DNA of 64,000 bases from an uncultured bacterium (GTDB taxonomy: Bacteria > Patescibacteriota > Microgenomatia > Levybacterales > UBA12049): NCBI GenBank assembly GCA_963826535.1, contig CAWGXL010000011.1:384809-448808 (forward strand), in the 5' to 3' direction. How positions within the stretch are numbered: the stretch's first letter is position 1; every line of letters begins with the position of its first letter. The notes beneath the pieces are model-generated. The model saw nothing but the letters and a program-made list of their open reading frames with translations, had not been told where the DNA came from and searched no databases. Both the position numbers and the translations under genes were made by a program. Below, piece by piece: positions 11,172 through 64,000 of this stretch.

Positions 11172-12512
11172 TTAAAGCGTCACCTCTGCTCGAAGCTTGT
11201 CGGTTGCAAGATATCTCATATTTTTACCCACTCGTTTCTTCTCAATCAGGCTTAAGCTTTCCAGCGCCTTAAGATCTTTATTGGTTGTTTCACGACTAAC
11301 TTTATTTAATTCAATAAAGGATGATGGAGTAATATAGCTTTTTTCACCTTTTACTATTAAATATCTTAAAAGCTCATATTGTCTCTCGTTTAAGTCATAC
11401 TTTTCACGCAGTATATTCTCCATTTTAGTGTTCTCTGTTGTTTTTTTCTTAATATACTCCTCAAAATTATTAAGGGCTTCAAGCATCTTTTTAATATTAA
11501 AATCGAAGAAGTATGTTATATCTAAGTCGTCCTGTTCGGAGTACACAAACGACATTCCATAGCGATCAGGCGCATTTCTTATAACCAAAGAGATGGGTAA
11601 ATATTGAATAGCCCAATAACTTTTTTTTAGTAAATACCAATAGAAGAGTGTTCTTGCTATTCTCCCGTTGCCATCATAGAAAGGGTGTAGGTAGCCAACC
11701 CAAAAATGGATAAATATCGCCTTTATAATTGGGTGTATAAAGCCTTCATCGCTTTCGTCATTTGCATATTTAATTAGTTCCCCTATCTGTTCTTTCAAAA
11801 ACTCTTCTTTTGGGGGGACATGATATATATATTTTTGTTGATCATTAATAGTTATGCCATCTTTATCAGTTCTGTATCTCTCCTGTTTATCAGCCTCTAA
11901 AGTATCTTTTGTAATCAGTTTATGTAGCTCAAAAAGCATCTCATGCGATAAAGATTTATTTTTATAGTTTTCATTAATTGCCTGCATCGTCTTATAGTTG
12001 TTCACAATCATTCGTTCAGACCTATCTTTTGGTACACGATTCTCAAGAATCAACCTCTTTGCCATTGGAGTGGTAGTAACAGCACCTTCAAGCTGGCTTG
12101 ATGCTATAGCTTCCTCAATAATACTTTTGGTCAGTAGTCTTTGCTTGCCATAAGGCGTGATGATATTGTGATAATGGGAAAATATCTCTCCACCTATCTT
12201 CATATCTATTTTATGTAAATATTCGTCGATATTATTGAGTCGAACCCAAGTAAAGAATTTACCGTTTTCAGCCTTTATTTTTGTACTTTTCGATAAAATA
12301 CTTCTCACTAGTTTTACCAAGTACCAAAACTCTTTTGTTGTAAGGCCATCTGGTCGAGGCTGGTATTTAATTTTATCCCAACAGAGATAATTATCCCCGG
12401 ATACTCGATCTATGTATTTGGCGTATTTATTTGCATCCTTGAAATACATCTCGACTGTTCGACCTTTATCAATGTCTGAGAAGTCAACTTTTTCTATTTT
12501 ATAGTTCTCCAT
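11172..12512 (-). CDS. Fic family protein
   Basis: Fic motif HPFYDGNGRIARTL. Start set at MENYKIEK, downstream of the repeat array. Confidence 0.8.
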   Translation of the reverse strand: MENYKIEKVDFSDIDKGRTVEMYFKDANKYAKYIDRVSGDNYLCWDKIKYQPRPDGLTTKEFWYLVKLVRSILSKSTKIKAENGKFFTWVRLNNIDEYLHKIDMKIGGEIFSHYHNIITPYGKQRLLTKSIIEEAIASSQLEGAVTTTPMAKRLILENRVPKDRSERMIVNNYKTMQAINENYKNKSLSHEMLFELHKLITKDTLEADKQERYRTDKDGITINDQQKYIYHVPPKEEFLKEQIGELIKYANDESDEGFIHPIIKAIFIHFWVGYLHPFYDGNGRIARTLFYWYLLKKSYWAIQYLPISLVIRNAPDRYGMSFVYSEQDDLDITYFFDFNIKKMLEALNNFEEYIKKKTTENTKMENILREKYDLNERQYELLRYLIVKGEKSYITPSSFIELNKVSRETTNKDLKALESLSLIEKKRVGKNMRYLATDKLRAEVTL

Positions 12513-12523
12513 ATTTTGGATAA

Positions 12524-12640
12524 AACATGTCAATAACATGTCAGATACATGTCAAGATCTGATATGTATCATATGTTACACCACTTTTGATCACATGTCA
12601 ACTACATGTCAACTACATGTCAAGTCTTGACATGTAGTTA
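12524..12640. promoter_or_regulatory. array of about seven direct ACATGTCAA repeats plus one 26-bp perfect palindrome (CTACATGTCAAG TC TTGACATGTAG) just upstream of the Fic start
   Basis: Read directly. On the coding strand the repeat is TTGACATGT, so it embeds -35-like TTGACA hexamers. Candidate operator or iteron. Confidence 0.5.
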
Positions 12641-13329: not shown

Positions 13330-13440
13330 TTTAATTTTTAAAGGTGGACATTGATTTTTAAAATTCTAAATCCGAATATCGAAATTCGAAACAATTTTCA
13401 AAATTTTAATGATCAAAATTCAAAACGTTTTGAATTTAGT
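13330..13440. repeat. AT-rich palindromic intergenic element (copy 1; core AAATTCAAAACGTTTTGAATTT)
   Basis: 22-bp perfect palindrome centred on AAAACGTTTT. The left arm CCGAATATCGAAATTCGAAACAA is homologous to the copy at 20531-20650. Confidence 0.45.
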
Positions 13441-13876
13441 AATTGCCTTTTAGTGTTTCTTCCAGTTCTCTGTCAAGGTCCTTTTTCTTGAGCGCTTCCT
13501 TTTTTTCGAATTTCTTTTTTGGTTTGCCCAATGCCAATTCGAGCTTGATTAAGTTCCCAGTAGTATACAACGAAATAGGCACAATTGTCAAGCTCGTGCC
13601 TTCGGTTTTGCTCTTGAGAGCAAAGATTTGTTTTTTGTGTAAGAGAAGCTTGCGAGTACGCTTGGGGTCGTATTGATCCGGCCGCGCGTACTCGTAAGGA
13701 AAGATCTTGGCGTTTATCAGATAGGCTTCACTACCGACAATACGCACGAAACTTCCGCTCAGGTCAGCGTGATTGAGGCGTATGGCCTTGACTTCTGCTC
13801 CAAGCAAGTTGATACCGGCTTCGAATTTTTCATCTATTGAGTAGTTGTAGTGCGCTTTGCGGTTGATGATTTTCAC
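13436..13876 (-). CDS. smpB: SsrA-binding protein SmpB
   Basis: Full-length similarity to SmpB (NRKAHYNYSI...LLLHKKQI), 146 aa. Confidence 0.85.
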   Translation of the reverse strand: MKIINRKAHYNYSIDEKFEAGINLLGAEVKAIRLNHADLSGSFVRIVGSEAYLINAKIFPYEYARPDQYDPKRTRKLLLHKKQIFALKSKTEGTSLTIVPISLYTTGNLIKLELALGKPKKKFEKKEALKKKDLDRELEETLKGNY

Positions 13877-13916
13877 TCACTCATAATATCGAATCAGGAG
13901 TCAGGAATCAAGGATG

Positions 13917-15659
13917 TTAGAGGGGGAGTTCGTAGATTTTGTTGTCTGAAAGTACTAGGGCTTTTTGGTCTGATTCTAAGATTTCGAAGTTTTTGGCTGA
14001 TTGGATAATATCCGCATTATATTGATTTTGGTATGAGCCACTTTTTCCAAGTTTGACGATTCTTGAGTTGCCGTTGTCGAGAATGTAGATGTTGTCTATG
14101 TCTATATTTGTGAAGATCCTAGTGGGGTTTGCAAGAGGCGTAAGTAATCCGGAAATCGCGAAGTTTTCAGGTTGCCCGCTTGTGTATTTGAGTATTTTTC
14201 CATCACTAGTGAGAATCCAGATTGAACCGTCAATGCTCATGCTACGGGCGTTGGTTAGGACGGGCGGGTTTTCTTTAAAGTAAGCAGTTTTATTGAAGCC
14301 GGTTTGGGCTACAACGTATTTCAATACGCCTGCTTTTTTGTCCAGGATATAGATATTTCCTTGATAGAGGGAGAGAGCAACAGGCGAGCTCCAGTCATTA
14401 TTGTTTTCGATGATGTCTTTTTTTTCATCGTTGGATTTGTCAATTGTAGTTACAGCTTTACCTGTCAGAAGATAGATTGCTGCGTCATCCTGAGCGTAAT
14501 CGACAGCCTTATTGTTTTTTTCAATATTGAGAAGATCGGATGCGTCGGCATTTACAGCAATGGGGGAAATTTTCTTCACATTTGTCGCGGTATTTAATTC
14601 TGTTTGTACTTGAATTAATAGTGCCTGAAGATTGACTTGTTCTTTGGAGCCGGATTTAAATTTGTTCATGTTATCTTTGAGAATCTGCTCAGCTTTTACG
14701 AAGTCGTCATGAGCCAGGATTTGGTTTAGTTTTTTTAGAGCCTTTCCTTCTTCATAGTTTTTTTGAGCCTGGGGGTAGACTTGTTGGTAGAGCGCTTCGT
14801 ACTTTTCGTTTTCCTGTTTTGATTTAGTAAAAATTATACTAGTTGTGAGCAAGATTAGGATAAGTACGGCAACGATTAGTGAAATTTTCTGTAAACGCGA
14901 GAGGCGGGGGATTTGTAGTTTAAGTTTTTTTTGGAGTTTAAGAAAGGTTGAGGGTACATTCTGGTTTGCCGCAGGCTCAGGCAGAATTGGATGTTGAGTT
15001 GAAGGCATCGTAATTTCATCGTTGACAACCTGGGTTTTGGGTGCGCCATTATAGGTGATAATTATAGCTGCCTGACTTCCGTCCTCTTTTTCGTGAACAT
15101 GGGGAGAGAGACTCTCGGCTATGTCATTGGGAAGTTCTAGTTTGAGAGCTTCGTTAATTTTTTCTTCTGAGACACACTTAGTAAAATGATCGGTTTGGAG
15201 CATGATAGTATCGTGTGGTTGTAAATATCCTGAAGCTGTCGCAGGCTGTGGACCGGAAACTTTTTTTTCCAGCAATAGACCTAGTAATTCAGTTCTCTTC
15301 ATAATGATTTTTCCTTTTCCAACAACGAAGAGGTAAAGTATATTGTCTTTAAAATAAGCGATGCAGGCGTCAGCAACTATATCGGGAGGGAGATTGATGC
15401 TTTTTTCTATGGCAGTTTTGATGGTTTGAAGTTTTTTATCTTCCAGAGTGAAGAATTCAGCTTCAAGATTGTTGAACAGATCTTTTCCAATTGAAGGTAA
15501 AACTAAATCCTGTTTGTTTTGATCTGTTATTGTTAACGAGAGCGCAACGAAGAGGCTTCCTGCATTGTAGACCTGTGACCACGAAAACGGGGTGGGAGTC
15601 GCAACTATTTTTGCGTATGCGAGACTCAGTTTGGGCACATGAAGGTCCGAGTTAGGCAT
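13917..15659 (-). CDS. hypothetical membrane-anchored protein with central TM and C-terminal repeat (beta-propeller-like) region
   Basis: 580 aa; the TM helix LIVAVLILILLTTSIIF is mid-protein; the C-terminal half has repeated YILD / ILT-like beta-strand motifs. Confidence 0.45.
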   Translation of the reverse strand: MPNSDLHVPKLSLAYAKIVATPTPFSWSQVYNAGSLFVALSLTITDQNKQDLVLPSIGKDLFNNLEAEFFTLEDKKLQTIKTAIEKSINLPPDIVADACIAYFKDNILYLFVVGKGKIIMKRTELLGLLLEKKVSGPQPATASGYLQPHDTIMLQTDHFTKCVSEEKINEALKLELPNDIAESLSPHVHEKEDGSQAAIIITYNGAPKTQVVNDEITMPSTQHPILPEPAANQNVPSTFLKLQKKLKLQIPRLSRLQKISLIVAVLILILLTTSIIFTKSKQENEKYEALYQQVYPQAQKNYEEGKALKKLNQILAHDDFVKAEQILKDNMNKFKSGSKEQVNLQALLIQVQTELNTATNVKKISPIAVNADASDLLNIEKNNKAVDYAQDDAAIYLLTGKAVTTIDKSNDEKKDIIENNNDWSSPVALSLYQGNIYILDKKAGVLKYVVAQTGFNKTAYFKENPPVLTNARSMSIDGSIWILTSDGKILKYTSGQPENFAISGLLTPLANPTRIFTNIDIDNIYILDNGNSRIVKLGKSGSYQNQYNADIIQSAKNFEILESDQKALVLSDNKIYELPL

Positions 15660-15662
15660 TAT

Positions 15663-15908
15663 TTATACTATAACAAGAGTGAGGAAAAAAAGCGAGAGCA
15701 CGAGAAAGAAATATAGTAATGCAAGTGATTTAATTAAACTTGCTGAAGATTGCGGGGGGAAAATGATTATTCTATCCAAGGCGCGGATTTTGTTATAGAC
15801 GAAAAACGTAAATATAGCATACAGTGCAATTATAATCAGGAGTATTATTTTGATTAGGAACGACAGATTTGGGTTTTGTATACCAAATGTTAATTGTGGA
15901 ATTTCCAT
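15663..15908 (-). CDS. small hydrophobic membrane protein (2 TM)
   Basis: 81-aa ORF, almost entirely hydrophobic. Confidence 0.3.
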   Translation of the reverse strand: MEIPQLTFGIQNPNLSFLIKIILLIIIALYAIFTFFVYNKIRALDRIIIFPPQSSASLIKSLALLYFFLVLSLFFLTLVIV

Positions 15909-16076
15909 AGGTTAGGACTTGTAAAAAAATAACTTATACAAACTGACTCGTCTTTTTGGCGGAATTTTTCGTTGCCGATCAACTCAAGTATACACCGTAT
16001 ACTATCGCTGATCAGCGCCTTGAATTCCACTCAAAAATACTTCGTGATTTTGCATAACCTATTTTTTTACAAGTCC

Positions 16077-16733
16077 TTAGTCTGTGATTAGTTTGCTTAT
16101 AGTGTCGACGACTTGTGTGGGATGGGGGACGCTTTCAAGGACAAAATCTTCTCTACCGCTAACAGTGTGGGATATTACATCGCCATAGTTAAAATACGAA
16201 GATAAAAAGCCTTTTTGTCTATGTACAACGTCTTCAATCTCGGGTAACTGTGTAATGGCAATATCAATATAGGAGAGATGCATGAAGTCAATATCGATTA
16301 TTCTTTTTTGTGTAAGGATGCCTATATTGTAGAACCAATCGACGAAATTATAAAAAGCGAATCCAATTATTAGCAGATAATAGAAGAATACGAGGATGAT
16401 GCTCAAGGTCAGCGGGAGAGAAAATGGAGGTAGATTTAACATGTGCATAAAGATGGGGAATAGCGGAGGCAGGAGAAGCGCTATAAATGTAATGGTGATC
16501 CATAAGAAGTTGGTAATGAAGTGACGACGCATGAAAAGAAGGATTTGTTCGTCTTTTTCCTGATGAGCAAAGGAAAAACCGACAGAGTTAGAAACAAGCG
16601 CTGAGAATATACCCGGAGCGACTTTTTTGAGGTCAGGGCGCAAGACTGCATTCTGCTTCACAGGAGCTTGTTGATATGTATTGTTGAAGTTTAACTTATT
16701 TGTAGTCTTCGATGTTGTGAAAATTTCAGGCAT
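16077..16733 (-). CDS. bacterial PH domain (DUF304/YdbS-like) membrane protein
   Basis: Two TM helices followed by a PH-like domain; the architecture matches bPH_2. Confidence 0.5.
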   Translation of the reverse strand: MPEIFTTSKTTNKLNFNNTYQQAPVKQNAVLRPDLKKVAPGIFSALVSNSVGFSFAHQEKDEQILLFMRRHFITNFLWITITFIALLLPPLFPIFMHMLNLPPFSLPLTLSIILVFFYYLLIIGFAFYNFVDWFYNIGILTQKRIIDIDFMHLSYIDIAITQLPEIEDVVHRQKGFLSSYFNYGDVISHTVSGREDFVLESVPHPTQVVDTISKLITD

Positions 16734-16760
16734 ATTAGTTTAAAGTTGCAATTGACGTTT

Positions 16761-18485
16761 TCATTTTTGTTCGATGTTGAAAAAGGCAAAGCCATTTTGG
16801 GGTATAGAGAGATAACCGGGGGCGCGTAGATTGAAAGCAGTTTTGAAACTTGAGCCATTGATATGCTTTTCTCCTTTGTCGGTTTGGAAAATTACTTCGT
16901 TAGTTGAACCATTCCCCTGCAGAACTGAAACGCCTGTTACAGAATTAATTCCGCCTCCATATTTGTCTGAGATTTGGCGAAGTTCGTCCTGGCTATAGGG
17001 ATTACCGCTCCAACAGTTGGTGGTGGTTGGAGTAATTCGGTTACTATCATCGCCTGAGCCATTACTTAAAACGAAGGAAGCGTTGACAATGTCGGCGATG
17101 TCAGACCCGCTAAGCCAGGGACTATCACGACCACATTTATCACTTGAAACGCTATAGCCTTTGGTATACCAAGCTTTATAAAACCAGGGAGAGCCTGCGA
17201 TCTTTTCATAAGCGCGATCTGCAAAGCTCGCGCCGCCTTGACCATCTGTGGTGTCCCAACCCATTGTGGTCAAGTATCCGCCTGTGGTTGAAGAGTAGTA
17301 GGTCACAACGTCTTCCAATACTTGTCCTTTTGTTTCATCTACCGCTTGTTTCCATGCTTCGGGGGGGTTATCGGCTTTGCCATTATTAAACACCTGACAC
17401 GCTTCAGTGGCACAAATTTCTGAGCCTTGTTGCTTGTTGCGAAAAGCATAGGTTCTGGCAGCAACAGCTTGTGCTTTCAAGGCTTCCTTTGGCCAGCTTG
17501 AGGGCATTTCGGCAATTCCAAGTAAATACCTGCCTTCAAAGTCTATCTCACCGTATCCGGCGACTTTGATCGTTCCGCCAGTGTCTTTGCCTACCGGGTC
17601 TTTGCCATAGTAAGCTTTGAGAATTGCCTTGAAATCCTGCCCCGCATTAGCACGGGCAAATGCGCCATATTGGCTCATGCCTTTGCGGTGAGTATGAGCA
17701 CCAAAAGAAAAGACTGAAAACATTCCGGACGGTGCTGATTCACGAAAGCCTTTGATCGAGGCTTTGTAATCGTCGGCTAAATCGCTGTCTCCAATTGTCG
17801 CAGTAAAACTTCCACTTCTGGCATTGATAATGGATTGTTGTTGTTCGGAGAGTTCTTGTATTTTGGTTGTAACGTCTTTTTGATAGGCAAGCGCGCCTTT
17901 AATAACTTCATCCAGCTTGGCTGATTGTTCGTCGAGATCGGCTGAGGTCGCTATAAGCCAAATTTGCTTCTGAATAAGCTCTAGTTTTTTATTTTCGAGA
18001 TCAGTGATGGAGAGCGCGATATTAGTGATGATATTTTTGTCTTGTCTGGTTTTTGCCTCCTGATAGATTTCTTCTTGGGTTTTTTCGCCGATTTGTACTT
18101 CAGAGAGAAATATGCTTAGAGGCGATTCTGTGTAACTTTTTATATAGAATTCACGAATTGAACGAAGAACCAATTGTTGTTTCCGCGCTAGGGTTTCGTA
18201 ACCTTTGTCGATTTCCTTTTTTTTTACAAGGGTATCGGATTCAACAGAAGCAAGTTGGGTTTTCATTCCTTGAATTTGCTTCTGCATGCGAAGCAGATCT
18301 GATTGAAGTGGTTTGGTGGCGGCTATGGAATTGTCTAACGCATCTTTGAGATCATTGAGTTCTTTGGTAATTTTGTCTAAGTTACCTGAGGAGACATCTA
18401 TGTCGTCTGCGAAAGCGGGAAGGGGCATTGAAAAAAAGATGGCTGATAGAAATACACAACAAAGTAATATTAAATTTGCGGGCAT
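16761..18485 (-). CDS. SpoIID/LytB domain protein with N-terminal signal peptide and coiled coil
   Basis: HRKGMSQYGAFARANAGQDFKAILKAYY matches the SpoIID/LytB core; the N-terminal half is a long coiled coil. Confidence 0.6.
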   Translation of the reverse strand: MPANLILLCCVFLSAIFFSMPLPAFADDIDVSSGNLDKITKELNDLKDALDNSIAATKPLQSDLLRMQKQIQGMKTQLASVESDTLVKKKEIDKGYETLARKQQLVLRSIREFYIKSYTESPLSIFLSEVQIGEKTQEEIYQEAKTRQDKNIITNIALSITDLENKKLELIQKQIWLIATSADLDEQSAKLDEVIKGALAYQKDVTTKIQELSEQQQSIINARSGSFTATIGDSDLADDYKASIKGFRESAPSGMFSVFSFGAHTHRKGMSQYGAFARANAGQDFKAILKAYYGKDPVGKDTGGTIKVAGYGEIDFEGRYLLGIAEMPSSWPKEALKAQAVAARTYAFRNKQQGSEICATEACQVFNNGKADNPPEAWKQAVDETKGQVLEDVVTYYSSTTGGYLTTMGWDTTDGQGGASFADRAYEKIAGSPWFYKAWYTKGYSVSSDKCGRDSPWLSGSDIADIVNASFVLSNGSGDDSNRITPTTTNCWSGNPYSQDELRQISDKYGGGINSVTGVSVLQGNGSTNEVIFQTDKGEKHINGSSFKTAFNLRAPGYLSIPQNGFAFFNIEQK

Positions 18486-19937: not shown

Positions 19938-20531
19938 ATGAGCGATAATGAAGGGGGTTATGAGGCGTTTCCAACTTATACTACGAGGTCAAGAAATGGT
20001 AATCGTTTTTTTCTGGTTTTTATCATAATTTTTGTATTGGCTGCGATTATACTTGGGGGATTATACTTTCTTGGTTCTTCAGAGAATTCTTCAAAGGAGA
20101 ATTCAATAGTAGTTAGGCCTACGTCGAAAATAGAAGCAACAGCAACTCCTTTGCCTACATCCTCAGCATCTGCTGTATTGACAGTTAGTGTGACGGGAGT
20201 ATTGACGCCTGCGGCAAAAATTTCATCTGTTGATGGGACGACGAAGCTAGATAGAAGTAAATTGGCAGTTGCTGTTCTTAATGGAAGCGGTGTGGCAGGA
20301 GCGGCGCTTGGGGTGTCAAATTATCTGGAAGGGCTGGGTTATAATATTGTTAAGGTGGATAATGCAAACGCATTTACTTATACTAATTTGACTGTTCAAG
20401 TAAAGAAAAGTAAGAGCGGTTATGCGGGGTTACTTAAGAAAGATCTAGAGGCAAATCCTGAATTAGCCAGTGTATCGGCGAGTATATCTGATGATATATC
20501 TAATGAAGCGGAAGTGATAGTTGGAAAATAA
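19938..20531 (+). CDS. LytR_C domain-containing membrane-anchored protein
   Basis: N-terminal TM; C-terminal AVLNGSGVAGAALGVSNYLEGLGYNIVKVDNA is typical of LytR C-terminal domains. Confidence 0.5.
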   Translation: MSDNEGGYEAFPTYTTRSRNGNRFFLVFIIIFVLAAIILGGLYFLGSSENSSKENSIVVRPTSKIEATATPLPTSSASAVLTVSVTGVLTPAAKISSVDGTTKLDRSKLAVAVLNGSGVAGAALGVSNYLEGLGYNIVKVDNANAFTYTNLTVQVKKSKSGYAGLLKKDLEANPELASVSASISDDISNEAEVIVGK

Positions 20532-20650
20532 ACTCGAAATTCGAATATCGAAATCCGAAACAATGACAGAAATATAAATGACCAAATGATCAAAACGTTT
20601 TTGGCATTTTGTATTTAGAACATTTGAATTTGTTTCGAATTTCGTGCTTT
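20531..20650. repeat. AT-rich palindromic intergenic element (copy 2; arms CGAAATTCGAATATCGAAATCCGAAACA / inverted, centre CAAAACGTTTTTG)
   Basis: The left arm and the reverse-complemented right arm match each other and also match copy 1. Confidence 0.45.
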
Positions 20651-28498: not shown

Positions 28499-28696
28499 AT
28501 GAAAGCGATAGATTTGAGTAAAGTTCTTAAGCCATATACTGAAGGATGGGTTGCTATAAATACAAAGAACAAAAAAATTGTAGCTTATGCAAAAACTTTT
28601 GAATCTATCTCTAATAAAGTTATAGATAAAAAGGGTATAATTTTGGTGCCTGCATCGAAGAATTATTTCGGTTTTGTTACTTCTATAAATGCGTAA
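28499..28696 (+). CDS. small protein (DUF5678-like GxWVAI motif), first gene of a cassette
   Basis: 65 aa; EGWVAINTKNKKIVAYAKTFESI...GIILVPAS. Its stop overlaps the start of the downstream gene by 8 nt. Confidence 0.5.
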   Translation: MKAIDLSKVLKPYTEGWVAINTKNKKIVAYAKTFESISNKVIDKKGIILVPASKNYFGFVTSINA

Positions 28697-29105
28697 ATAC
28701 CAATACTATCTTCCTGCTCCTAAAGTTTATAAGCCTTGGATTCCGGTAAAAATTGGATATAAGAAAACTAATAAGATAACATATGCTCAGGTTACAGCTC
28801 TGATTGATTCCGGAGCAGATGTTTGTTTTTGTTCGAGAGATATTGCAGATTTTCTTGGGGTTCAAAAAAAACAAAAAGAGAAAAAGATTTTTATAACTGC
28901 AAATAATTCTCCGCTCCCCACATTTCGCGAAACATTGACCTTATTTGTAGGCGGGAGAAATTACGAATGTTCGTTTTATATTTCCGATATGTTACCGAAA
29001 GAAACTCCAATTATACTTGGTCAGTTGGGGTTTTTTGATAAGCATAAAGTTACATTTGATTTGGAGAATGAAGAGATACAAATGAGTTATTACTTGGATA
29101 ATTAG
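28689..29105 (+). CDS. retropepsin-like (clan AA) aspartic protease
   Basis: Active-site motif ALIDSGADVCF (D-S-G-A) and ILGQLGFF; 138 aa, single domain. Confidence 0.6.
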   Translation: MRKYQYYLPAPKVYKPWIPVKIGYKKTNKITYAQVTALIDSGADVCFCSRDIADFLGVQKKQKEKKIFITANNSPLPTFRETLTLFVGGRNYECSFYISDMLPKETPIILGQLGFFDKHKVTFDLENEEIQMSYYLDN

Positions 29106-29155: not shown

Positions 29156-29228
29156 GGGCCAGTAGTTCAGCGGCTAGAACGGGCGTCTTATACACTCCAT
29201 GTCGGAGGTTCGAGTCCTCCCTGGCCCA
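29156..29228 (+). tRNA. tRNA-Ile, anticodon reads UAU
   Basis: GGGCCAG-TA-GTTCAGCGGCTAGAAC-G-GGCGT-CTTATAC-ACTCC-ATGTC-GGAGG-TTCGAGT-CCTCC-CTGGCCC-A; one C:U mismatch in the anticodon stem. Confidence 0.55.
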
Positions 29229-29382
29229 CAAACTGTAATTTGTTATGATAAATAAAGACTTCTTTGGGTTTGTAGCCTGCTTTGCTGGTGTAAAATACCA
29301 TAATGAAACCAGAACTAGACAGAACATTAGGGTTGAGGCTATATGAAGATCGGGATAAAATTAGTAGAATGAAGACAATGAT

Positions 29383-38286: not shown

Positions 38287-39192
38287 ATGACCTTTCTTGA
38301 AAAATACGAGCTACTTAAAAAATCTATTCCTGTTCCGGCTGTTAATGCCAGCTCGTCTGTTGACTGCGATTATACTGATTTTGTCGATCGATGCAAGAAT
38401 TGCTACTATGCCTTCGATGCGTATTATCTTGAAAACAATATTTATACATACTATGGAGCATATAACAAAATGTTATTAGATTGTCATGGAATGGGTGAAT
38501 GTGAGAAATGTTATGAAAGTGCCGACTGTACCAAATGCCACAGCTGCACTTATTTAATAAACTGCAATAGCAGTAGTGACTGTCATTTTTCAGCCTACCT
38601 AAATTCATGCAATGATTGCTTCGGTTGTGTTGATTTAACTCATAAAAAATATTGCATATTTAACCGTCAATATACAAAGGAGGAATACTTCAAAAAAATT
38701 GAAGAGCTAAAAACAGAAAATCCAAAGAATTTACTAGAGCAAATGTCAGATCTCGAACGAAAGTTGCCGCATCCTGCAACTTACCAATCCAATAGCGAAA
38801 ATTGTCCATACGGTAATAATATTTATAATTCAAAGAATTGTTTTTGGTCTTTCAATACATATTATTTTGAAAACTCGGGCTATTCTTATTATGTATCATA
38901 CGCAAAGAATTGTTGGGATGTCTCTGAATTTGGAGGAAACCCGGGAGTAAAAACAATTTCGGAGAGATGTTATGAGAATTTAAATACAGAGACTTGTTAC
39001 GATTGCACATTTCTTGTGTCAAGCAAGAGTTGTACAAACTGTCATTATAGTAATCAGCTTATAAATTGCTCTGATTGTTTCGGCTGTACCGGGCTAAAAA
39101 ATAAAAAATATTGTGTTTTAAATAATCAACTAACGAAAGAACAATACGAACAAGCCCTAAGAGAGATTAAAAAAGAGTTGGGGTGGAAATAA
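38287..39192 (+). CDS. cysteine-rich internally duplicated repeat protein (paralog 1 of 3)
   Basis: 301 aa with about 40 Cys in CxxC / CFGC motifs; two homologous halves, each ending CFGCxxLxxKKYCxxNxQxTKEQY. The N-terminus MTFLEKYELLKKSIPVPAV is shared with the genes at 62769 and 63707. Confidence 0.6.
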   Translation: MTFLEKYELLKKSIPVPAVNASSSVDCDYTDFVDRCKNCYYAFDAYYLENNIYTYYGAYNKMLLDCHGMGECEKCYESADCTKCHSCTYLINCNSSSDCHFSAYLNSCNDCFGCVDLTHKKYCIFNRQYTKEEYFKKIEELKTENPKNLLEQMSDLERKLPHPATYQSNSENCPYGNNIYNSKNCFWSFNTYYFENSGYSYYVSYAKNCWDVSEFGGNPGVKTISERCYENLNTETCYDCTFLVSSKSCTNCHYSNQLINCSDCFGCTGLKNKKYCVLNNQLTKEQYEQALREIKKELGWK

Positions 39193-51874: not shown

Positions 51875-52060
51875 AAATCCAAAATACAAAATCATAAATT
51901 CCAACAATAAATTACAAATTCAAAATTACAAATCCTAAATAAATTCAAATATTTAAATTCTAAATCCAAAACGTTTTGAATTTTTAAAATTAGAATTTTG
52001 ATATTATTTGGAATTTGGTGCTTTGAATTTGTAATTTACATCTGGCAGTTTGGATTTCGA
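51874..52060. repeat. AT-rich palindromic intergenic element (copy 3), 7-bp-periodic arms around CCAAAACGTTTTGAATTT
   Basis: The left arm (aaattca / acaaatt heptamers) and the right arm (gaatttt / aatttgt) are reverse complements around the AAAACGTTTT centre. Lies between the kinase gene and recF. Confidence 0.5.
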
Positions 52061-57692: not shown

Positions 57693-59507
57693 ATGAAATT
57701 TAGTGAATTGGCGATTTATTTTGAAAAATTAGAAGCTACATCTTCAAGATTAGCACTTATTGATATACTTGCGGATCTTTTTAAGCAGGTATCTAATGAT
57801 GAGTTTGACAGAGTTATTTATTTGACGCAGGGGAGGGTGGCGCCGTTCTACGCGCCTGTGGAAATCGGTATGGCGGATAAGATGGTGGCGCAAAGCATCG
57901 GTGAAGCATTTGGTCTTACTAAAGACGAGGTGCTCACAGTTTTTTCAAAAAAAGGCGACTTGGGGTTGGTTGCGTTTGAGCTTTCAAAGAGCAAGCGAAA
58001 ACGCGGGAAAAAAGAAGAATTGTCGGTCGTAACTGTTTTTGATGAGTTATTGAAGATTGCGCATACCGGAGGAGTCGGTAGTGTTGAAAAGAAAATTACC
58101 GCATTGAAAGTATTGCTTGAACATATGGATGCTGTTTCGGCGAAACATTTGGTCAGAATCCCTCTTGGTAATACAAGACTCGGAATAGGAGACCCAACAA
58201 TATTAGATGGGTTGGCTTTGGCTATTTTAGGAGACCGCAGCAACAGAAAACTTCTTGAAAAAGCGTACAATGAGACTTCAGATTTAGGCTTGATTGGTAA
58301 GACATTGGTGGAGGGTGGGTTGAAAAAAGTTCAAAAGCTGACTGTAAATGTTGGCAGGCCGATCAGGTCAGAACTATGTGAACGTTTGCCTAATCCAGAA
58401 AAAGTTTTTAGTAAGATGAGTCCTTCGACAGGCTCAGGATCTCCCTACGGTCGAGGTGTGCATACGACTTTTAAATATGATGGGTTTCGGGTGCAGATTC
58501 ATAAAAATGGTAACAAAGTGGAGATGTTTTCCCGCAATCTAGAAGATATGACGCATATGTTTCCGGAACTTATTGAGGGGACGCTTAAGCAAGTGAAAGC
58601 TAAGACTGTGATTTTGGATACTGAGGCATTGGCATATCAGCCTGATTCGGAAGAATTTTTGCCGTTTCAAGAAACTACCAAGCGGCGTAGAAAATATAAT
58701 ATTGAAGAGATGGCCCAGAGTTTGCCATTGAAAGCATTTGTTTTTGATATTTTGTATTTAGATGGAAAATCTCTGATTGATACTCCGCTAACGGAGCGGA
58801 TGAAGATTCTAAAAAAAGTTATTCCCAATAAGGACATTTTGATTCCATCAACCGGAGAAATTCTGACAGATCCCAAAGATCTGCAATTTATGCTGGACGA
58901 TGCGATTTCAAAAGGACTTGAGGGGGTTGTGGTTAAAAAACCTGACTCATTGTATGAAGCGGGCGGACGGAATTTTAATTGGGTGAAGCTGAAAAGACAT
59001 TCTTCCGGAGAACTGCAGGATACTATTGACTGCGTGATTTTGGGATATATATTCGGCCGCGGCAAAAGAACGGCATTTGGAGCCGGAGCATTATTGGTGG
59101 GATTGTATGATAAAGCTGCTGATCAATTTGTCAGTGTCTCCCGAATAGGAACAGGGTTAAATGATGATGAGTGGAGAAGCATCAAAGAAAAAACAAAAGG
59201 CCTCGAACTTGACCATAAGCCTGCACGTGTAAATTCATTGATTACGCCGAGTGTTTGGGTAAAGCCTGAGATTGTGATTGAGGTTTTGGCGGATGAGATA
59301 ACGAGGAGTCCTTTGCATACCGCGGGTATGCAAACTAAGAACTTAGGACCTAGAACTAAGAACAAAGTGGAGGATAAATTACAAGAGGCGGGGTATGCTT
59401 TGAGGTTTCCGCGATTAATTAGCTTTCGTGATAAGGATAAAAAGGCTGAGGATGCTACTACGGTGGATGAGTTAATTGAAATGTATAAGATGCAAGGCAA
59501 GAAATAG
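57693..59507 (+). CDS. ATP-dependent DNA ligase (archaeal/eukaryotic Lig-type) with an in-frame insertion
   Basis: Motif I KYDGFR (KxDG), motif IV EGVVVK, motif V WVKLK. Insertion at 59312-59366 (palindrome tttgcataccgcgggtatgcaaa plus taagaac repeats). Confidence 0.8.
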   Translation: MKFSELAIYFEKLEATSSRLALIDILADLFKQVSNDEFDRVIYLTQGRVAPFYAPVEIGMADKMVAQSIGEAFGLTKDEVLTVFSKKGDLGLVAFELSKSKRKRGKKEELSVVTVFDELLKIAHTGGVGSVEKKITALKVLLEHMDAVSAKHLVRIPLGNTRLGIGDPTILDGLALAILGDRSNRKLLEKAYNETSDLGLIGKTLVEGGLKKVQKLTVNVGRPIRSELCERLPNPEKVFSKMSPSTGSGSPYGRGVHTTFKYDGFRVQIHKNGNKVEMFSRNLEDMTHMFPELIEGTLKQVKAKTVILDTEALAYQPDSEEFLPFQETTKRRRKYNIEEMAQSLPLKAFVFDILYLDGKSLIDTPLTERMKILKKVIPNKDILIPSTGEILTDPKDLQFMLDDAISKGLEGVVVKKPDSLYEAGGRNFNWVKLKRHSSGELQDTIDCVILGYIFGRGKRTAFGAGALLVGLYDKAADQFVSVSRIGTGLNDDEWRSIKEKTKGLELDHKPARVNSLITPSVWVKPEIVIEVLADEITRSPLHTAGMQTKNLGPRTKNKVEDKLQEAGYALRFPRLISFRDKDKKAEDATTVDELIEMYKMQGKK

Positions 59508-59558: not shown

Positions 59559-60329
59559 ATGGAAGTTAAAACATCAGGTGAATCAAATTTCCGTATAATT
59601 AAAATTGCCAGTAAGGAACTGATTCAGGATTTAACGCAGAGACAAGAGGAGTTAGATGAATGGGTTAAAAAGACTAAGGAGGTAGTCCCAACAGATAGAA
59701 ATTTTAATTTCGAAATTAAAAAAGGAGTTGAAAATAATGTAGGTCTTAGTTTAAGAAGAAATGATGGAGCAACGATTAACGTCAATTCTTTTATACCTGA
59801 AGGAGTAAGATTTCAAATAAGAGATAAATATTTATATAATGATGCAGAGAAGGTAGTTGGTTTTCCTGAAGATCAGCTGCAATATAGGGGGTCTCTTTTG
59901 TCGCTTTTTCATGAAATTGGACATTCTAAAACGTTTGTTATGCCAAGTTATTCATTTATAGAGAAAGTGAGGGCTGAGGTTGTAAATAAACTAAATCTTT
60001 TTAGAATTATTAATCACCAAGGCAATTTAGAAGTGCCTCAACTAGATCATCTCCTACATATAATTAATATAAGTCCAGAAGTACTCTATCCTGAAGACCT
60101 GATGGAAAAGAGACTTTCTGTACATGAACAAAATGAAAGGGAAGCATGGGCATCAGGGCTACATTCCCTACGGGATCTTAATAGTAAAGGTTACAATGTT
60201 TTTGCAGGTTTTGAAAGCGTGAAGGATGTACAAGCTTTTATTGCTGCTAATCTTACATCATACAATATACTGGAGCATGCGATGACAGGTTACGAGTCTA
60301 ATCGTTTTTCAAAAAGACCCTATAAATAA
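59559..60329 (+). CDS. hypothetical protein with HExxH (HEIGH) motif
   Basis: LFHEIGHSKTF is the only recognisable feature; possible metallopeptidase. Confidence 0.4.
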   Translation: MEVKTSGESNFRIIKIASKELIQDLTQRQEELDEWVKKTKEVVPTDRNFNFEIKKGVENNVGLSLRRNDGATINVNSFIPEGVRFQIRDKYLYNDAEKVVGFPEDQLQYRGSLLSLFHEIGHSKTFVMPSYSFIEKVRAEVVNKLNLFRIINHQGNLEVPQLDHLLHIINISPEVLYPEDLMEKRLSVHEQNEREAWASGLHSLRDLNSKGYNVFAGFESVKDVQAFIAANLTSYNILEHAMTGYESNRFSKRPYK

Positions 60330-60370
60330 ATGCCCTTTTTTATTTTAATGAGATATTGATGGGTGCATTA

Positions 60371-60475
60371 TATGCAGTACGTAGCGGATTTGCATCTTCA
60401 TTCAAAATATTCGCGGGCGGTGTCGCAGAGTATGACCTTATCTGTAATGGCGCAATATTCCTTGAGAAGAAGAGT
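60371..60475 (+). pseudogene. truncated duplicate of the 5' end (~35 codons) of the EndoQ-like gene
   Basis: MQYVADLHLHSKYSRAVSQSMTLSVMAQY then stop. About 80% nt identity to 61133-61225. Confidence 0.5.
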
Positions 60476-60509
60476 TTGATTTCGCTATTTTTTATGTTAT
60501 TATAAATTA

Positions 60510-60710
60510 ATGAAAACAGTTGACTGGAGCAATATTTATAAAAATCATAAAGGCAAATGGGTAGCGTTGGCAGATGATGAGAGGACGGTTCTGGCTGTTG
60601 CGACAGACGTTAAACAGGTAATTAAAAAAGCGCTCGATGCGGGGCATAAAAATCCAATCTTAACCAAGATGCCTCAGAAATTGCTTACATATGTCGGCTC
60701 CCGTATATGA
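60510..60710 (+). CDS. small protein (DUF5678-like GKWVAL motif), first gene of cassette copy 2
   Basis: 66 aa; HKGKWVALADDERTVLAVATDVKQVIKKALDAGHKNPIL. Overlaps the downstream gene by 4 nt. Confidence 0.5.
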   Translation: MKTVDWSNIYKNHKGKWVALADDERTVLAVATDVKQVIKKALDAGHKNPILTKMPQKLLTYVGSRI

Positions 60711-61126
60711 AGTTTTCCTATAAAGATTATGGCGAAGGCATCATCCGTCCTGTTATCCCAATTACGATAGTATCTAAAAACCACTTTGTAATCTATGAAG
60801 TTCTGGTTGATTCGGGTGCTGATTCAAACATTTTGCCAGCAGAGCTTGCGGAAGTCTTGGGAATAAATCTTAGTAAAGGCGATAAGGGAGAAGTAGCAGG
60901 AATTACCGGTGAAAGTCGTGATATTTATTTCCATGATTTGAATATCCGGGTAGGAGGTGATTTATATAAAAAAGTACGGATTGGATTCTTAAAAGAAATG
61001 GGACAGTACAGTTATGGCGTTGTAGGTCAAAAGGGCTTTTTTGATATTTTTGTAGTTAAATTTGACTTAGTCAAGGAAGAAATAGACTTAAAACCGCGAG
61101 AAAGTTTTAGTTCCTATAAAAATTGA
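60707..61126 (+). CDS. retropepsin-like (clan AA) aspartic protease, paralog of 28689..29105
   Basis: VLVDSGADSNIL (D-S-G-A) and FLKEMGQ...GQKGFF; 139 aa. Confidence 0.6.
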   Translation: MKFSYKDYGEGIIRPVIPITIVSKNHFVIYEVLVDSGADSNILPAELAEVLGINLSKGDKGEVAGITGESRDIYFHDLNIRVGGDLYKKVRIGFLKEMGQYSYGVVGQKGFFDIFVVKFDLVKEEIDLKPRESFSSYKN

Positions 61127-61132
61127 GCGCTT

Positions 61133-62701
61133 ATGCATTACGTGGCGGATTTGCATTTACATAGTAAATATTCACGGGCGGTGTCGCCGAGTATGACTCT
61201 TCCGGTAATGGCGCAATTCGCGAGACAAAAGGGACTGGATATTTTGACTGTTTCGGATTGGACACATCCGATTTGGTTTAGGGAAATACAGGGACAGTTA
61301 GAGGAAGCAGGGGAAGGAGTATACAAAATCAAAGATCCCCACAAGGGGACTACCTTCAAAGAAGGGTCGCAAAGTTCAAAGATCAAAACTACAACTCACG
61401 CCGACGTTAAAGCTATGGCGGGCGGGCAAAGCTCAAAATCACAAAAAGATATTTTATTTTTGCTTTCTACAGAAATCTCAAGCATCTATAAGCAGGGGGA
61501 TAAATTACGACGGATACATAATCTTATTTTTGTACCAAATTTGGAAACTGCGGAGAAAGTTAGTAAGGAACTACTACGGCGGGGGTGTAATTTGTCGGCT
61601 GATGGGCGGCCGATTATTGGTTTGTCTGCAAAAAATTTATTGGAGCTGATTTTAGCTATTGATGAAAGGTCGTTGCTTATTCCATGTCATATTTGGACGC
61701 CGCATTTTGGGGTTTATGGATCAAAAAGTGGGTTTGATTCACTTGAGGAGGCATTTGGTGATTTGGCAAAATATGTATATGGCGTTGAGACAGGTATTTC
61801 TTCTGATCCTGAAATGAACTGGCGAGTTGAGGAGCTTAGTAACCGGTCAATACTTTCATTTTCCGATGCACATTCTCCTGCTAATATGGCACGCGAGGCC
61901 ACGGCCTTTGAACTTTCGGAGCCGAGCTATGAAAATATAAGACAGGCATTTATGCGAACATCTAAACTTGTCATTGCGAGCGACCCGCCAGCTGGCGGAG
62001 AGCGTGGCAATCCCGTTGAGAAAGGGATTGCACCCCAAGAGTACTTGCCTCTTCGAGGTGGCGCTTCGTCGTCCTTAAATAAGGGGACTCCTCGCAATGA
62101 CAATCGTATAGCTTATACAATTGAATTTTATCCTGAAGAGGGTAAGTATCATTATTCAGGTCACCGAACATGCAAAATTTCCTTTTCGCCTCAAGAAATT
62201 AAAGAGCATGGAAAGATTTGTCCAGTCTGCAAACGGGAATTTACAGAAGGGGTAGCGCTTCGCATTGAGCAACTAGCCGGAGCGGCTAATGCAGACGGAT
62301 ATGAAGAGAAAATAAGCGAAAGCGGTGTTAAGTGGTATACGGATGGGTCAAAGAGGCATCCTCCATATGTTAAGCTTGTGCGACTTGAACAGATTATAGG
62401 AAGCGGGATGGGTCTTGGAGCAAAAAGCATTAAGGTGAAAGCCGAGTATGACAAATTAATGCGTGAATTTGGGTCGGAGCTTACTATTCTTCTTAAGTCA
62501 ACATTATCTGAGATAGAAAAAATAACTAATGCAAAAATTGCTGAGGGTGTGGGAAGAGTGAGAAAGGGAAAGCTTAAAATTGACCCGGGATATGACGGGG
62601 AATACGGGGTTGTAAAAATTTGGGATTCTGCAGAGCAGAATTTAAAGGGAAAAGAGGCTGGGGAAAAAATTTCTGAAGGGCAGTTGGGGCTGGACATCTA
62701 A
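61133..62701 (+). CDS. EndoQ-like PHP-domain nuclease (TIGR00375 family) with in-frame insertions
   Basis: N-terminal YVADLHLHSKYSRAVS (PHP His cluster as in archaeal EndoQ) and a C-terminal Zn finger C...CPVC. Insertions at 61324-61448 and 61985-62100. Confidence 0.6.
   Translation: MHYVADLHLHSKYSRAVSPSMTLPVMAQFARQKGLDILTVSDWTHPIWFREIQGQLEEAGEGVYKIKDPHKGTTFKEGSQSSKIKTTTHADVKAMAGGQSSKSQKDILFLLSTEISSIYKQGDKLRRIHNLIFVPNLETAEKVSKELLRRGCNLSADGRPIIGLSAKNLLELILAIDERSLLIPCHIWTPHFGVYGSKSGFDSLEEAFGDLAKYVYGVETGISSDPEMNWRVEELSNRSILSFSDAHSPANMAREATAFELSEPSYENIRQAFMRTSKLVIASDPPAGGERGNPVEKGIAPQEYLPLRGGASSSLNKGTPRNDNRIAYTIEFYPEEGKYHYSGHRTCKISFSPQEIKEHGKICPVCKREFTEGVALRIEQLAGAANADGYEEKISESGVKWYTDGSKRHPPYVKLVRLEQIIGSGMGLGAKSIKVKAEYDKLMREFGSELTILLKSTLSEIEKITNAKIAEGVGRVRKGKLKIDPGYDGEYGVVKIWDSAEQNLKGKEAGEKISEGQLGLDI
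61324..61448. repeat. in-CDS composite insertion (heptamers plus ccccacaaggggactac core) in the EndoQ-like gene
   Basis: Encodes KIKDPHKGTTFKEGSQSSKIKTTTHADVKAMAGGQSSKSQKD. Confidence 0.5.
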
Positions 62702-62768
62702 AGAATTTTCAATTTGAAATTTTCAATTTTCAATCAATTTACAATGTTTCAATTTTCAATTAAAAATT

Positions 62769-63674
62769 ATGACCTTTCTTGAGAAATACGAACTACTGAA
62801 AAAATCTATTCCTGTTCCGGCTATTGTAACTAGAGAATCTGTTGATTGTGAGTATGTAGATTATGCTTATAGATGTAAAAATTGCTATTATTGCCCTTAT
62901 GGATTTAGACTGACTGATAGTATATATACGTATCTTGGTTGGGGCATTAAGCTTGTTGATTGTGATACTGCAACTGAATCCGAAAAGTGTTATGAGTGTA
63001 TTCATTGTAAGAAATGTTACAACTCTACATATCTGATAGATTGCAATAGTTCTACTGATTGTCATTTTTCTTCCTTACTTAACTCGTGTACTGATTGTTT
63101 TGGTTGTGTCAGTCTTACCCATAAGAAATACTGTATATTTAATAAGCAATTCACAAAACAAGAATATTTTAAGAAAGTAGAAGCGAAGAGACGAGAAAAA
63201 CCGGAAAAACTTCTTGAACAAATGCTTGAGCTTAAAAAAACAATCCCACATCCGGCGAGTCAACAATTCGATAGTGAAAACAGTCCGTATGGTAATTATA
63301 TTTACTCGACTAAAAACAGCTTTTGGTGTTTTGACAGTCATTATATGGAAAATTCAGGCTATATTTATACTAGCGGTTTTTCAAAAAGATGTTGGGATAT
63401 GTTTGCAAGCGGAGCAACAATACAAGAAGGTACTTCCTCAGAGTTGTGTTATCAAATTGCTGATTCAGGCGGTTGTTATAACTGCGCATTTCTTTATCGT
63501 TGCGAATACTGTGCTAATTGTTTTTATAGCGATAATCTCATGAATTGTAATGACTGCTTCGGGTGCGTGGGACTAACAAAGAAAAAATATTGCATATTAA
63601 ATAATCAACTTACTAAAGACCAATATGAAAAAGCAATTAAAGTGATCAGAAAAGAGCTTGGGTGGAAAAATTAG
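62769..63674 (+). CDS. cysteine-rich repeat protein (paralog 2 of 3)
   Basis: 301 aa, collinear with the 38287 gene, same N-terminus and CFGC...KKYC motifs. Confidence 0.6.
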   Translation: MTFLEKYELLKKSIPVPAIVTRESVDCEYVDYAYRCKNCYYCPYGFRLTDSIYTYLGWGIKLVDCDTATESEKCYECIHCKKCYNSTYLIDCNSSTDCHFSSLLNSCTDCFGCVSLTHKKYCIFNKQFTKQEYFKKVEAKRREKPEKLLEQMLELKKTIPHPASQQFDSENSPYGNYIYSTKNSFWCFDSHYMENSGYIYTSGFSKRCWDMFASGATIQEGTSSELCYQIADSGGCYNCAFLYRCEYCANCFYSDNLMNCNDCFGCVGLTKKKYCILNNQLTKDQYEKAIKVIRKELGWKN

Positions 63675-63706
63675 CTAAAAAATTAGGTGCTATAATACTA
63701 AGCAAT

Positions 63707-64000
63707 GACATTTCTTGATAAGTATGAACTCCTAAAAAAATCTGTTCCTGTTCCGGCTGTAACCAGGGTGGATACTTTAGAATCTGAATATTCTGATTTT
63801 ATGGGTATGAGTAAAAATTGCTTCTATTGCTTTCATGGGTACAAACTCGTAGACAGTATGTATTCAATTCACGGATGGGGTGCTGACCTAATAGACTGCC
63901 TTTATACTACGGAATCAGAGCGATGCTACGAGTGTATTGAATCCACAAAGTGTCATAGCTGCACTTATCTTATAGAGTGCAACAACTGTACCGATTGTCA
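63707..64000 (+). CDS. cysteine-rich repeat protein (paralog 3, 3'-partial at window end)
   Basis: MTFLDKYELLKKSVPVPAV...CHSCTYLIECNNCTDC; runs off the window. Confidence 0.55.

Follow-up and report, generated by a model that had tools for sequence, protein, structure and literature searches.

We analysed a window of 64,000 nucleotides (nt) from an uncultured bacterium of the Microgenomatia (Patescibacteriota; contig CAWGXL010000011.1 of assembly GCA_963826535.1, positions 384,809 to 448,808), in which a small two-gene cassette lies between two copies of the 5' end of a gene for a nuclease of the endonuclease Q (EndoQ) family. The cassette, a unit of 675 bp, carries a gene for a DUF5678 small protein and a gene for a retropepsin-like aspartic protease. 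The downstream copy belongs to the intact EndoQ gene, and the upstream copy is a relic. Judged from their sequences, the two copies are different functional EndoQ alleles, because the differences between them are biased towards synonymous sites and those specific to the relic are confined to nt 25-72 of the gene. We lean, with some reserve, towards reading the relic as the scar left by one-sided homologous recombination, the partners being related genomes of which one had the cassette and the other did not. All coordinates below are those of the window unless another locus is named.

A cassette between two copies of the EndoQ 5' end

Positions 60371-60456 and 61132-61217 form an ungapped direct repeat of 86 nt with 84% identity and 761 nt from start to start, which bears out the repeat that the initial annotation of this DNA had put at about 95 nt and about 80% identity. 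When the copies were anchored on their start codons (ATG at 60372 and 61133), 71 of 87 nt were identical. Neither in the upstream leader (shuffle P=0.37) nor past position +87 (P=0.72) did the homology extend significantly. The right copy (61132..61217, + strand) is the 5' end of the intact gene for a 522-amino-acid (aa) nuclease (61133..62701, +). The left copy (60371..60456, +) begins an open reading frame (ORF) of 35 codons, MQYVADLHLHSKYSRAVSQSMTLSVMAQYSLRRRV, which ends at a stop codon at 60477-60479; the stop had been recognised earlier, but the ORF is six residues longer than was then quoted. Within the window this relic is the sole other trace of EndoQ (tblastn, residues 1-33, E=1.7e-10).

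As had been proposed, the cassette is placed exactly between the two repeat copies. Its leader (60457..60509, +) contains a promoter-like site of its own at 60476-60503, in which a promoter scan found TTGATT, a 16-nt spacer and TATTAT preceded by TG, and the TATGnTATTATAA box of this leader is kept in the related loci L001-L004. The gene for the 66-aa DUF5678 protein (60510..60710, +; PF18929) follows, and the gene for the 139-aa protease (60707..61126, +) overlaps its stop by 4 nt. Cassette and EndoQ are only 6 nt apart, with no terminator-like site in between, which suggests that EndoQ is now probably co-transcribed from the cassette promoter. An assembly artefact was ruled out, because the copies are not the same (84-96% identical) and the junction could not be supplied by either variant on its own.

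The two copies are different EndoQ alleles

The 84% identity alone is not proof of a recent duplication, because the EndoQ 5' region is so conserved among orthologues. Over the same 87 nt, other orthologues are 67-77% identical, and the closest orthologue, L010, matches the intact copy at 88.5%. Such conservation, strongest in the region of the His cluster, is also what might be said for a chance or convergent origin, in which an unrelated short ORF resembles the His-cluster codons. Against this, the relic has a start codon and shares 25 of 29 residues with the resident gene, its four variant residues (Q2, Q19, S24 and Y29) are all common states in the family, its tblastn match is strong, and synonymous sites are identical at both ends of the repeat. 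A chance resemblance is practically inconceivable.

The initial annotation had favoured insertion of the cassette with partial target duplication, after which the stranded copy diverged. The architecture fits this history, as does another cassette, at locus L140, which looks like an early stage of neutral decay: its 45-nt bracket repeats the 5' end of the downstream ROK-like gene with two differences, both amino-acid-changing and both in the upstream copy. The substitutions in the window argue against it. Over 28 codons the two copies differ at 14 nt and in only 3 amino acids, with synonymous switches that include TCA/AGT for serine and two of CTT/TTA for leucine. When the substitutions were polarised with L010, the 12 on the fragment branch hit 7 codons and changed 3, where neutrality would predict 8.2 (P=3.7e-4). 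An explicit model of in-place duplication, in which one copy evolves neutrally and the other under constraint, gave P=3.5e-4. The relic has no stop and no indel across 87 nt, and its peptide is closer to those of two unrelated homologues than to that of the resident gene. Along the repeat the differences are clustered rather than spread, with two in nt 1-24, none in nt 73-85 and all fragment-specific changes in nt 25-72. The insertion part of the earlier proposal stands, given the empty sites described below, while its duplication and divergence do not, and we consider neutral decay of a duplicated target extremely unlikely. Gene conversion between two nuclease copies, which the same annotation had offered as an alternative, comes nearer the truth, as the copies represent two functional alleles.

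The intact copy likewise shows a patch of unusual similarity. Its nt 20-81 are identical to L010, a different species, at 60 of 62 positions (97%), compared with 65 of 87 (75%) in nt 88-174, and a Fisher test of nt 20-81 against nt 88-240 gave P of about 1e-7. Third-position identity between the intact copy and L010 is 0.88 in codons 1-30 and about 0.6 gene-wide. The relic, for its part, matches the codon family or residue of a second relative, L169, whose protein has the relic's variant residues, at 5 of 6 diagnostic codons; at the DNA level it matches L169 at 69 of 87 positions, about equal to the 71 of 87 of the resident copy. Read by eye, the sequence of L009, which is closest to the window in both ligase and EndoQ, looks like the intact copy at most of the diagnostic codons.

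The cassette is an insertion between ligase and EndoQ

A gene for an ATP-dependent DNA ligase (57693..59507, +), for whose orthologue in L169 the Pfam domains DNA_ligase_A_N/M/C are recorded, is the ancestral neighbour of EndoQ on the upstream side. Ligase homologues with 43-74% identity stand upstream of EndoQ in more than 20 Microgenomates loci, from Levybacteria, Daviesbacteria and others. L169 is syntenic with the window through carbohydrate kinase, Fic, ligase and EndoQ, with identities of 77% for Fic, 64% for the ligase and 55% for EndoQ. In L014, L063 and L046, which we regard as empty sites, only 4, 25 and 62 nt, respectively, separate ligase from EndoQ; at the other extreme the gap holds several kb of unrelated genes. 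The DUF5678-protease cassette is at none of 80 EndoQ loci. Relative to the conserved order of ligase then EndoQ, comparison of these sequences shows the cassette to be an insertion. A comparison with related genomes, which the initial annotation had called for, thus yielded sites with a single EndoQ 5' end and no cassette, but in distant relatives (the ligases of L014, L063 and L046 are 43-64% identical). Relatives of the 256-aa gene directly upstream of the relic were also sought as a path to a true empty site, and none were found, this gene being an ORFan. No relics of the ligase 3' end were seen in 17 syntenic loci.

Ligase and EndoQ do not tell the same history in every relative. The EndoQ of L010 groups with those of the window and L009, and its ligase does not (residuals +14 and +17, compared with a standard deviation of 4.7). 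Because the ligase and EndoQ identities disagree for L010, we conclude that EndoQ alleles have been exchanged between lineages.

Across loci L009-L088 the ligase-EndoQ gap is a hot spot for unrelated insertions. We observed 118-aa genes in L011 and L015, which by their sequence encode putative four-helix-bundle proteins of the 23S rRNA intervening-sequence type, related-looking genes for 173-177 aa in L030 and L040, TatD-like genes in L043 and L070, and a gene for 659 aa in L010.

EndoQ 5' relics without a cassette

At two further loci, L015 and L005, an EndoQ 5' relic stands beside an intact EndoQ gene with no cassette, and for this reason relic formation is not cassette-dependent. In L015, a 46-nt relic, MEFVADLHLHSKYSR, is followed by 99 nt of unrelated sequence and then by an intact EndoQ gene with different codons. 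In L011 the intact EndoQ gene has a start that is collinear with this relic, and the two loci share the upstream 118-aa gene and a nearly identical 36-nt spacer. In L005, a 27-nt relic (MNYTADLHL) precedes about 46 nt with a GC-rich hairpin and then the intact gene. Compared in this way, the loci indicate that short allelic 5' stubs of EndoQ arise repeatedly. According to the initial annotation, relatives with the same fragment and no cassette would tell against a duplication caused by the cassette; these analogous relics go part of the way to that case.

These relics bear on two other explanations. One is a site-specific integrative element that targeted the EndoQ 5' end and brought a replacement 5' end, with its integrase supplied in trans or since lost. 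A second, non-identical gene end that restores gene function would be expected from such an element, relics occur at three EndoQ loci, and cassettes are often found beside tRNA genes. But there is no integrase in or near the unit, the other brackets described below are unrelated sequences with no shared core, no other cassette is located beside EndoQ, and the three relic junctions lie at different positions (+27, +46 and +86). An integrative element is thus highly unlikely. The other explanation is that the relic is the remnant of a second, tandem EndoQ gene (a paralogue or xenologue) upstream of the cassette, deleted from nt +87 on. This would account for a fragment that evolved as coding sequence. 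However, roughly 86 EndoQ loci include none with two EndoQ genes, tblastn found no further trace in the window, and the near-identical repeat ends would be left unexplained, as would the same bracket at unrelated genes. We regard a tandem remnant as very improbable.

The inserts at the two cassette-free loci have features in common. Both contain a GC-rich inverted repeat, GTCCCAC...GTGGGAC in the insert of L015 (3902-4000 of that locus) and CCCGCCCGC...GCGGGCAGG in that of L005 (4074-4119), and in both an AT-rich -10-like box follows the inverted repeat just before the ATG. Such inserts might be miniature insertions or, alternatively, the terminator and promoter of a donor. BLAST of the junction sequences and of the 99-nt spacer of L015 against the DNA sequences compared here gave no matches. 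Nothing came either from searching every EndoQ locus against itself with its first 120 nt, a method so insensitive that it missed even the L015 relic. The body of the L015 EndoQ gene is not clearly foreign to its flanks, as its protein identity of 61%, compared with 70-80% for the flanks, falls within the usual offset.

Other cassettes are bracketed by repeats of their own local sequence

A metagenome scan found at least 80 further cassette loci, and 84 loci were included in the family comparison. A DUF5678 homologue accompanies the protease in 82 of the 84, and in none of the other family loci is the cassette near EndoQ. The neighbourhood differs almost everywhere, with 113 flanking proteins falling into 102 clusters; together with the recurrent brackets of local sequence, this upholds the link between cassette and mobility that the initial annotation had drawn. 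Among 2.9 million viral contigs there was only one distant cassette relative, at 36% identity.

About ten independent cassettes have a direct repeat on either side, 17-86 nt in length and made in each case of sequence from the locus itself. In a stricter test, 8 of 49 cassettes were bracketed, compared with 1 of 512 mock intervals. At L141 the bracket covers at least 53 nt of the leader and 5' end of a membrane-protein gene, and 7 of its 8 differences are at third codon positions. At L092, a mirror image of the window, the last 36 nt or so of ftsH are repeated after the cassette with only synonymous differences, AGT/TCT among them. The brackets of L141 and L092 thus differ mainly at synonymous sites, as do the two EndoQ copies, a recurrence that a recombination scar would lead us to expect. 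At L116/L117 a whole small gene is duplicated, with an internal deletion in the upstream copy, and L104, L110, L164, L103 and L109 have repeats of 17-42 nt. Several brackets (L116/L117, L109, L104, the core of L092, and L140) are 95-100% identical.

The geometry of the bracketed units is uniform: leaders measure 53-80 nt and begin 0-19 nt upstream of a TTGAyT -35-like hexamer, a tail of 2-17 nt follows the protease stop, and the whole unit comes to 659-685 nt. The brackets have no common repeat motif, and the units have no conserved or inverted termini. A transposon or insertion sequence was rejected, as the unit encodes only DUF5678 and the protease, with no transposase or recombinase, and the duplications have no fixed length. 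RNA-mediated (retro) mobility was also rejected as unlikely, as the bracketed unit includes its own promoter.

The bracketed family lends weight to a serious remaining rival. The cassette may have first inserted at nt +86 of the resident gene, through transposition or something like it or through replication-based template switching, so that nt -1 to +86 of the recipient were duplicated, after which a conversion tract (about nt 25-72) from another EndoQ allele replaced the middle of one copy. The ends of the repeat (nt 1-24 and 73-85) are nearly identical, as if from one sequence, several family brackets are 95-100% identical, the geometry of the unit is uniform, and conversion or exchange of EndoQ is independently evident. 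This history, however, needs two events where one suffices, and the brackets of L141 and L092 are also allelic, so that conversion would have to be invoked repeatedly. Nor does the unit have a recombinase, terminal inverted repeats or conserved ends, and duplications of 17-86 nt fit no enzyme with a fixed stagger. Primary insertion followed by conversion is, in our judgement, rather unlikely.

A further reading, which we hold to be improbable, is that the DUF5678-protease pair is itself a self-contained mobile unit of about 660-685 bp that has no recombinase, lands at the starts or sometimes the ends of host genes in bacteria of the candidate phyla radiation and makes target duplications of a variable 17-86 nt. 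As envisaged, and with equally little probability, the unit would begin a little upstream of the cassette promoter, end shortly after the stop codon of the protease and leave the host gene intact. It could possibly move as small circles that host recombination handles, or insert into melted or nicked DNA near transcription starts. If this were true, a housekeeping gene such as EndoQ, SmpB or a ROK-type kinase would be transcribed from the cassette, and the pair would represent a previously unrecognised mode of gene mobility and of entrenchment of a selfish module.

The closest relatives of the cassette (protease 68-74% identical) are located between a variable gene and smpB, in a SpoIID...SmpB block; in L001 and L004 the cassette is 9 nt upstream of smpB. 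No duplicated smpB 5' end was found around these closest relatives. In L001-L004 the protease is about as conserved with respect to the window as SmpB (70%), and the other neighbours are 30-45% identical. The window has the same SpoIID-DUF5657-SmpB block at 13436-18485 on the minus strand without a cassette, and the site that the closest relatives occupy elsewhere is here a cassette-free spacer of 40 nt upstream of smpB (13877..13916, minus strand).

The label of "copy 2" under which the cassette was first described is a loose one. Copy 1 (28499..29105, +), 51 nt upstream of a tRNA-Ile(tat) gene, is a distant family member whose protease is 27% identical and whose small protein has no detectable similarity, and no flanking duplication was found around it. 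ARAGORN placed this tRNA-Ile, with a UAU (tat) anticodon, at 29156-29229. Few bacteria have such a tRNA; AUA is as a rule decoded by a tRNA with a modified CAU anticodon. A tRNA gene lay no more than about 160 nt from the cassette in 6 of 58 scanned loci (L103, L123, L125, L145, L159 and L163); by a rough estimate this exceeds the expectation at roughly one tRNA gene per 20 kb.

Three loci (L128, L129 and L131) carry tandem cassette arrays, in which the first protease gene is followed by another DUF5678 gene and by leader sequence repeated over about 300 nt. Such arrays would be expected if brackets recombined unequally. Of 43 cases with a co-oriented gene downstream, 13 have the start of that gene no more than 9 nt from the stop codon of the protease, and four of the bracketed cases have a duplication whose beginning is within about 11 nt of the start codon of the target gene. 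The preference of the cassettes is for positions right at gene starts.

A possible origin by one-sided recombination

The history that we favour, with the reserve stated at the outset, would begin with the ancestral order of DNA ligase, a short variable gap and EndoQ. DNA from a related cell would then have recombined at this locus, donor and recipient differing by the 675-bp cassette, with homology on one side only. The event may have been a single-crossover (Campbell-type) integration of a small circle that carried the cassette and a short piece of EndoQ. Equally possible is homology-facilitated illegitimate recombination of a linear fragment, with a non-homologous join at nt +86/87. By either route the cassette would come to lie between two copies of EndoQ nt 1-86 derived from two different functional alleles, one of them remaining in the working gene and the other stranded as the 35-codon stub behind the original upstream region of the gene. 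The imported side could have been the cassette, with or without the right-hand copy, or the end of a cassette-free donor allele that was joined at the edge of a resident cassette.

Several observations weigh against this history. We infer its direction and route, because no donor and no near-identical empty site were found: among the matches listed there was neither a donor allele nor such a site, and the nearest EndoQ is about 64% identical. The native allele is likewise ambiguous, because L009 resembles the intact copy and L169 resembles the relic. For RecA-type crossover, 86 nt with 84% identity make a poor substrate, and several brackets of the family are only 17-23 nt long. The geometry of the units appears too regular for random illegitimate joins and hints at defined element ends. 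Further patches of high identity between the window and L010 occur inside the gene, for example at nt 170-200, so that the patch ending where the repeat ends is suggestive only.

Identity of the EndoQ nuclease

The intact protein matched TIGR00375 with E=3.7e-45, at a score of 154.9 bits that is below the curated cut-off of 326.6. It has more than 8000 homologues, some of them named 'endonuclease Q family protein'; an exact-protein look-up of the window protein itself returned no record. PF27218 (MJ0043_C) is precomputed for the window protein and its homologues and was not returned by the Pfam scan that we ran. The N-terminal histidine cluster of the PHP type (DLHLHS) reads MHYVADLHLHSKYSRAVS in both the intact gene and the fragment, and residues D6-S18 are nearly invariant across 119 EndoQ homologues. 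The window protein has every invariant column of the 119-sequence alignment, including the Cys/His cluster H344, C347, C363 and C366 and the PHP core H186, H191, D245 and H247. Endonuclease Q cleaves 5' of deaminated bases (dU and hypoxanthine), and the window protein is assigned to this family by its sequence.

The cassette proteins

The DUF5678 protein matched PF18929 with E=8e-6 and 26 bits (cut-off 23.2), and a search for literature on DUF5678 found nothing relevant. The protease scored 27.5 bits against PF13650 (Asp_protease_2; cut-off 24.3) and far under the cut-off against TIGR03698. Its catalytic motif is VDSGADSN, in which D35, S36, G37 and D39 are invariant in 79 homologues. The AlphaFold model has a predicted local distance difference test (pLDDT) score of 90, and the top fold matches are Rickettsia APRc, HIV-1 protease and the RVP domain of DDI1. 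By motif, profile and predicted fold, the protein is a putative retropepsin-like (clan AA) aspartic protease. Homology to its relatives stops near 61102, and the last 7 residues (from about 61103) are absent in them.

Like APRc (PDB 5c9b/5c9d/5c9f), the cassette protease has a single-domain clan AA fold with a DSG motif (Foldseek TM 0.65/0.74). Unlike APRc, to which its sequence is about 18% identical, it is paired with a DUF5678 gene. APRc is membrane-anchored. In comparison with it, the 139 aa of the cassette protease comprise little beyond the protease domain.

Searches of PHROGs and of PDB sequences with the cassette gave no match, and the protease matched PADLOC PDC-M08B and PDC-M52B weakly (E of about 1e-5 to 1e-3). 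The DUF5678-protease pair is small, co-directional and overlapping, and is a fixed pair in variable contexts, an organisation like that of toxin-antitoxin or defence modules. In its short overlapping genes, promoter-like site, variable context and occasional tandem arrays, it resembles type II toxin-antitoxin-like pairs and the candidate systems PDC-M08/PDC-M52 of PADLOC; with the protease matches to the latter being weak, the likeness is one of gene organisation.

Neighbouring features

The variable gap between the ligase and the relic is filled by a 256-aa ORFan (59559..60329, +), directly left of the relic. It has no match in Pfam, NCBIfam, PADLOC or PHROGs, matches itself alone among 5.8 billion proteins and is absent from all loci that we fetched. 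At the start of the relic, a 9-nt unit, GTGCATTAT (60363..60371, +), is in tandem with the first 9 nt of the relic, ATGCAGTAC, the repeat spanning 60363-60380. It matches the start of the intact gene, ATGCATTAC (MHY), at 7 of 9 positions and the relic's own start at 6 of 9. This tandem may be the trace of an earlier junction or slippage event.

A 301-aa cysteine-rich protein without a family is encoded in three copies with 56-59% identity (38287-39192, 62769-63674 and 63705-64000). The first follows murD, the second follows EndoQ directly, and the third, in tandem with it, is cut off by the end of the window. The gene has an internal repeat with 459-nt spacing and a homologue downstream of the EndoQ gene of L010. 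AT-rich intergenic repeats of 57 nt (63-79% identical) were seen at 13361-13417, 20530-20586, 51909-51965 and 62704-62760, with one copy directly after the smpB stop and one after the EndoQ stop; they are possibly mere low-complexity sequence. Near the tmRNA gene, an iterated ACATGTCA(A/G) motif at 12525-12636 forms two 44-nt blocks 68 nt apart. The ACATGTCA(A/G) array overlaps the 5' end of a gene for 455 aa (11172-12539, minus strand) and extends upstream of it, and an operator or iteron-like array is possible.

Relation to known systems and significance

In E. coli, a single crossover of a circular molecule at lacZ yielded an insert flanked by duplications of 109-950 bp (PMC3240628). The window resembles such Campbell-type integration in that the insert is bracketed by a direct duplication whose copies differ as donor and recipient would, and in that no recombinase of the element is needed. 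Unlike that engineered plasmid with its duplications of 109-950 bp, the brackets of the window family are natural, 17-86 nt long and formed around one family of gene pairs.

Homology-facilitated illegitimate recombination in transformable bacteria is the subject of de Vries & Wackernagel 2002, Prudhomme et al. 2002 and Meier & Wackernagel 2003, as these are cited in PMC5361080. The same process has been proposed for effector displacement in Vibrio's type VI secretion system (T6SS), in which a 3' effector fragment and orphan immunity genes are shifted downstream (PMC5361080). The scars of T6SS and Rhs orphan arrays share with the window a one-sided homology anchor, an illegitimate join and a displaced gene fragment beside a new module, and there too the alleles in one genome derive from different strains and not from duplication. 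They differ in that those are 3' fragments with orphan immunity genes at polymorphic toxin loci, whereas the window has a 5' stub of a housekeeping repair gene. The passenger here is the DUF5678-protease pair, and the host is a bacterium of the candidate phyla radiation (Microgenomates/Levybacteria-like).

As with integrative elements at gene ends (tRNA, tmRNA and protein-coding), a second, slightly different end keeps the gene intact and the displaced end becomes a relic. Such elements have an integrase and a conserved att core, whereas the unit in the window has neither. The scar is a new instance of a known process, and the cassette is uncharacterised. For the family-level pattern, in which a pair without a recombinase repeatedly has duplications of 17-86 nt around it at the ends of genes, no description was found in the literature that could be searched.

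Bacteria of the candidate phyla radiation have tiny genomes with few recognisable mobile elements, and how they gain accessory genes is unclear. The window locus, the other brackets and the two cassette-free relics would together be scars, at the level of sequence, of DNA from related cells joined by way of one-sided homology. The ligase-EndoQ gap is a recurrent landing site, and the DUF5678-protease pair is a widespread and unusually mobile module that is a candidate for toxin-antitoxin or defence activity. The allelic stubs, short pieces of housekeeping genes that can be mistaken for duplications or pseudogenes, may serve as searchable markers of past transfer.

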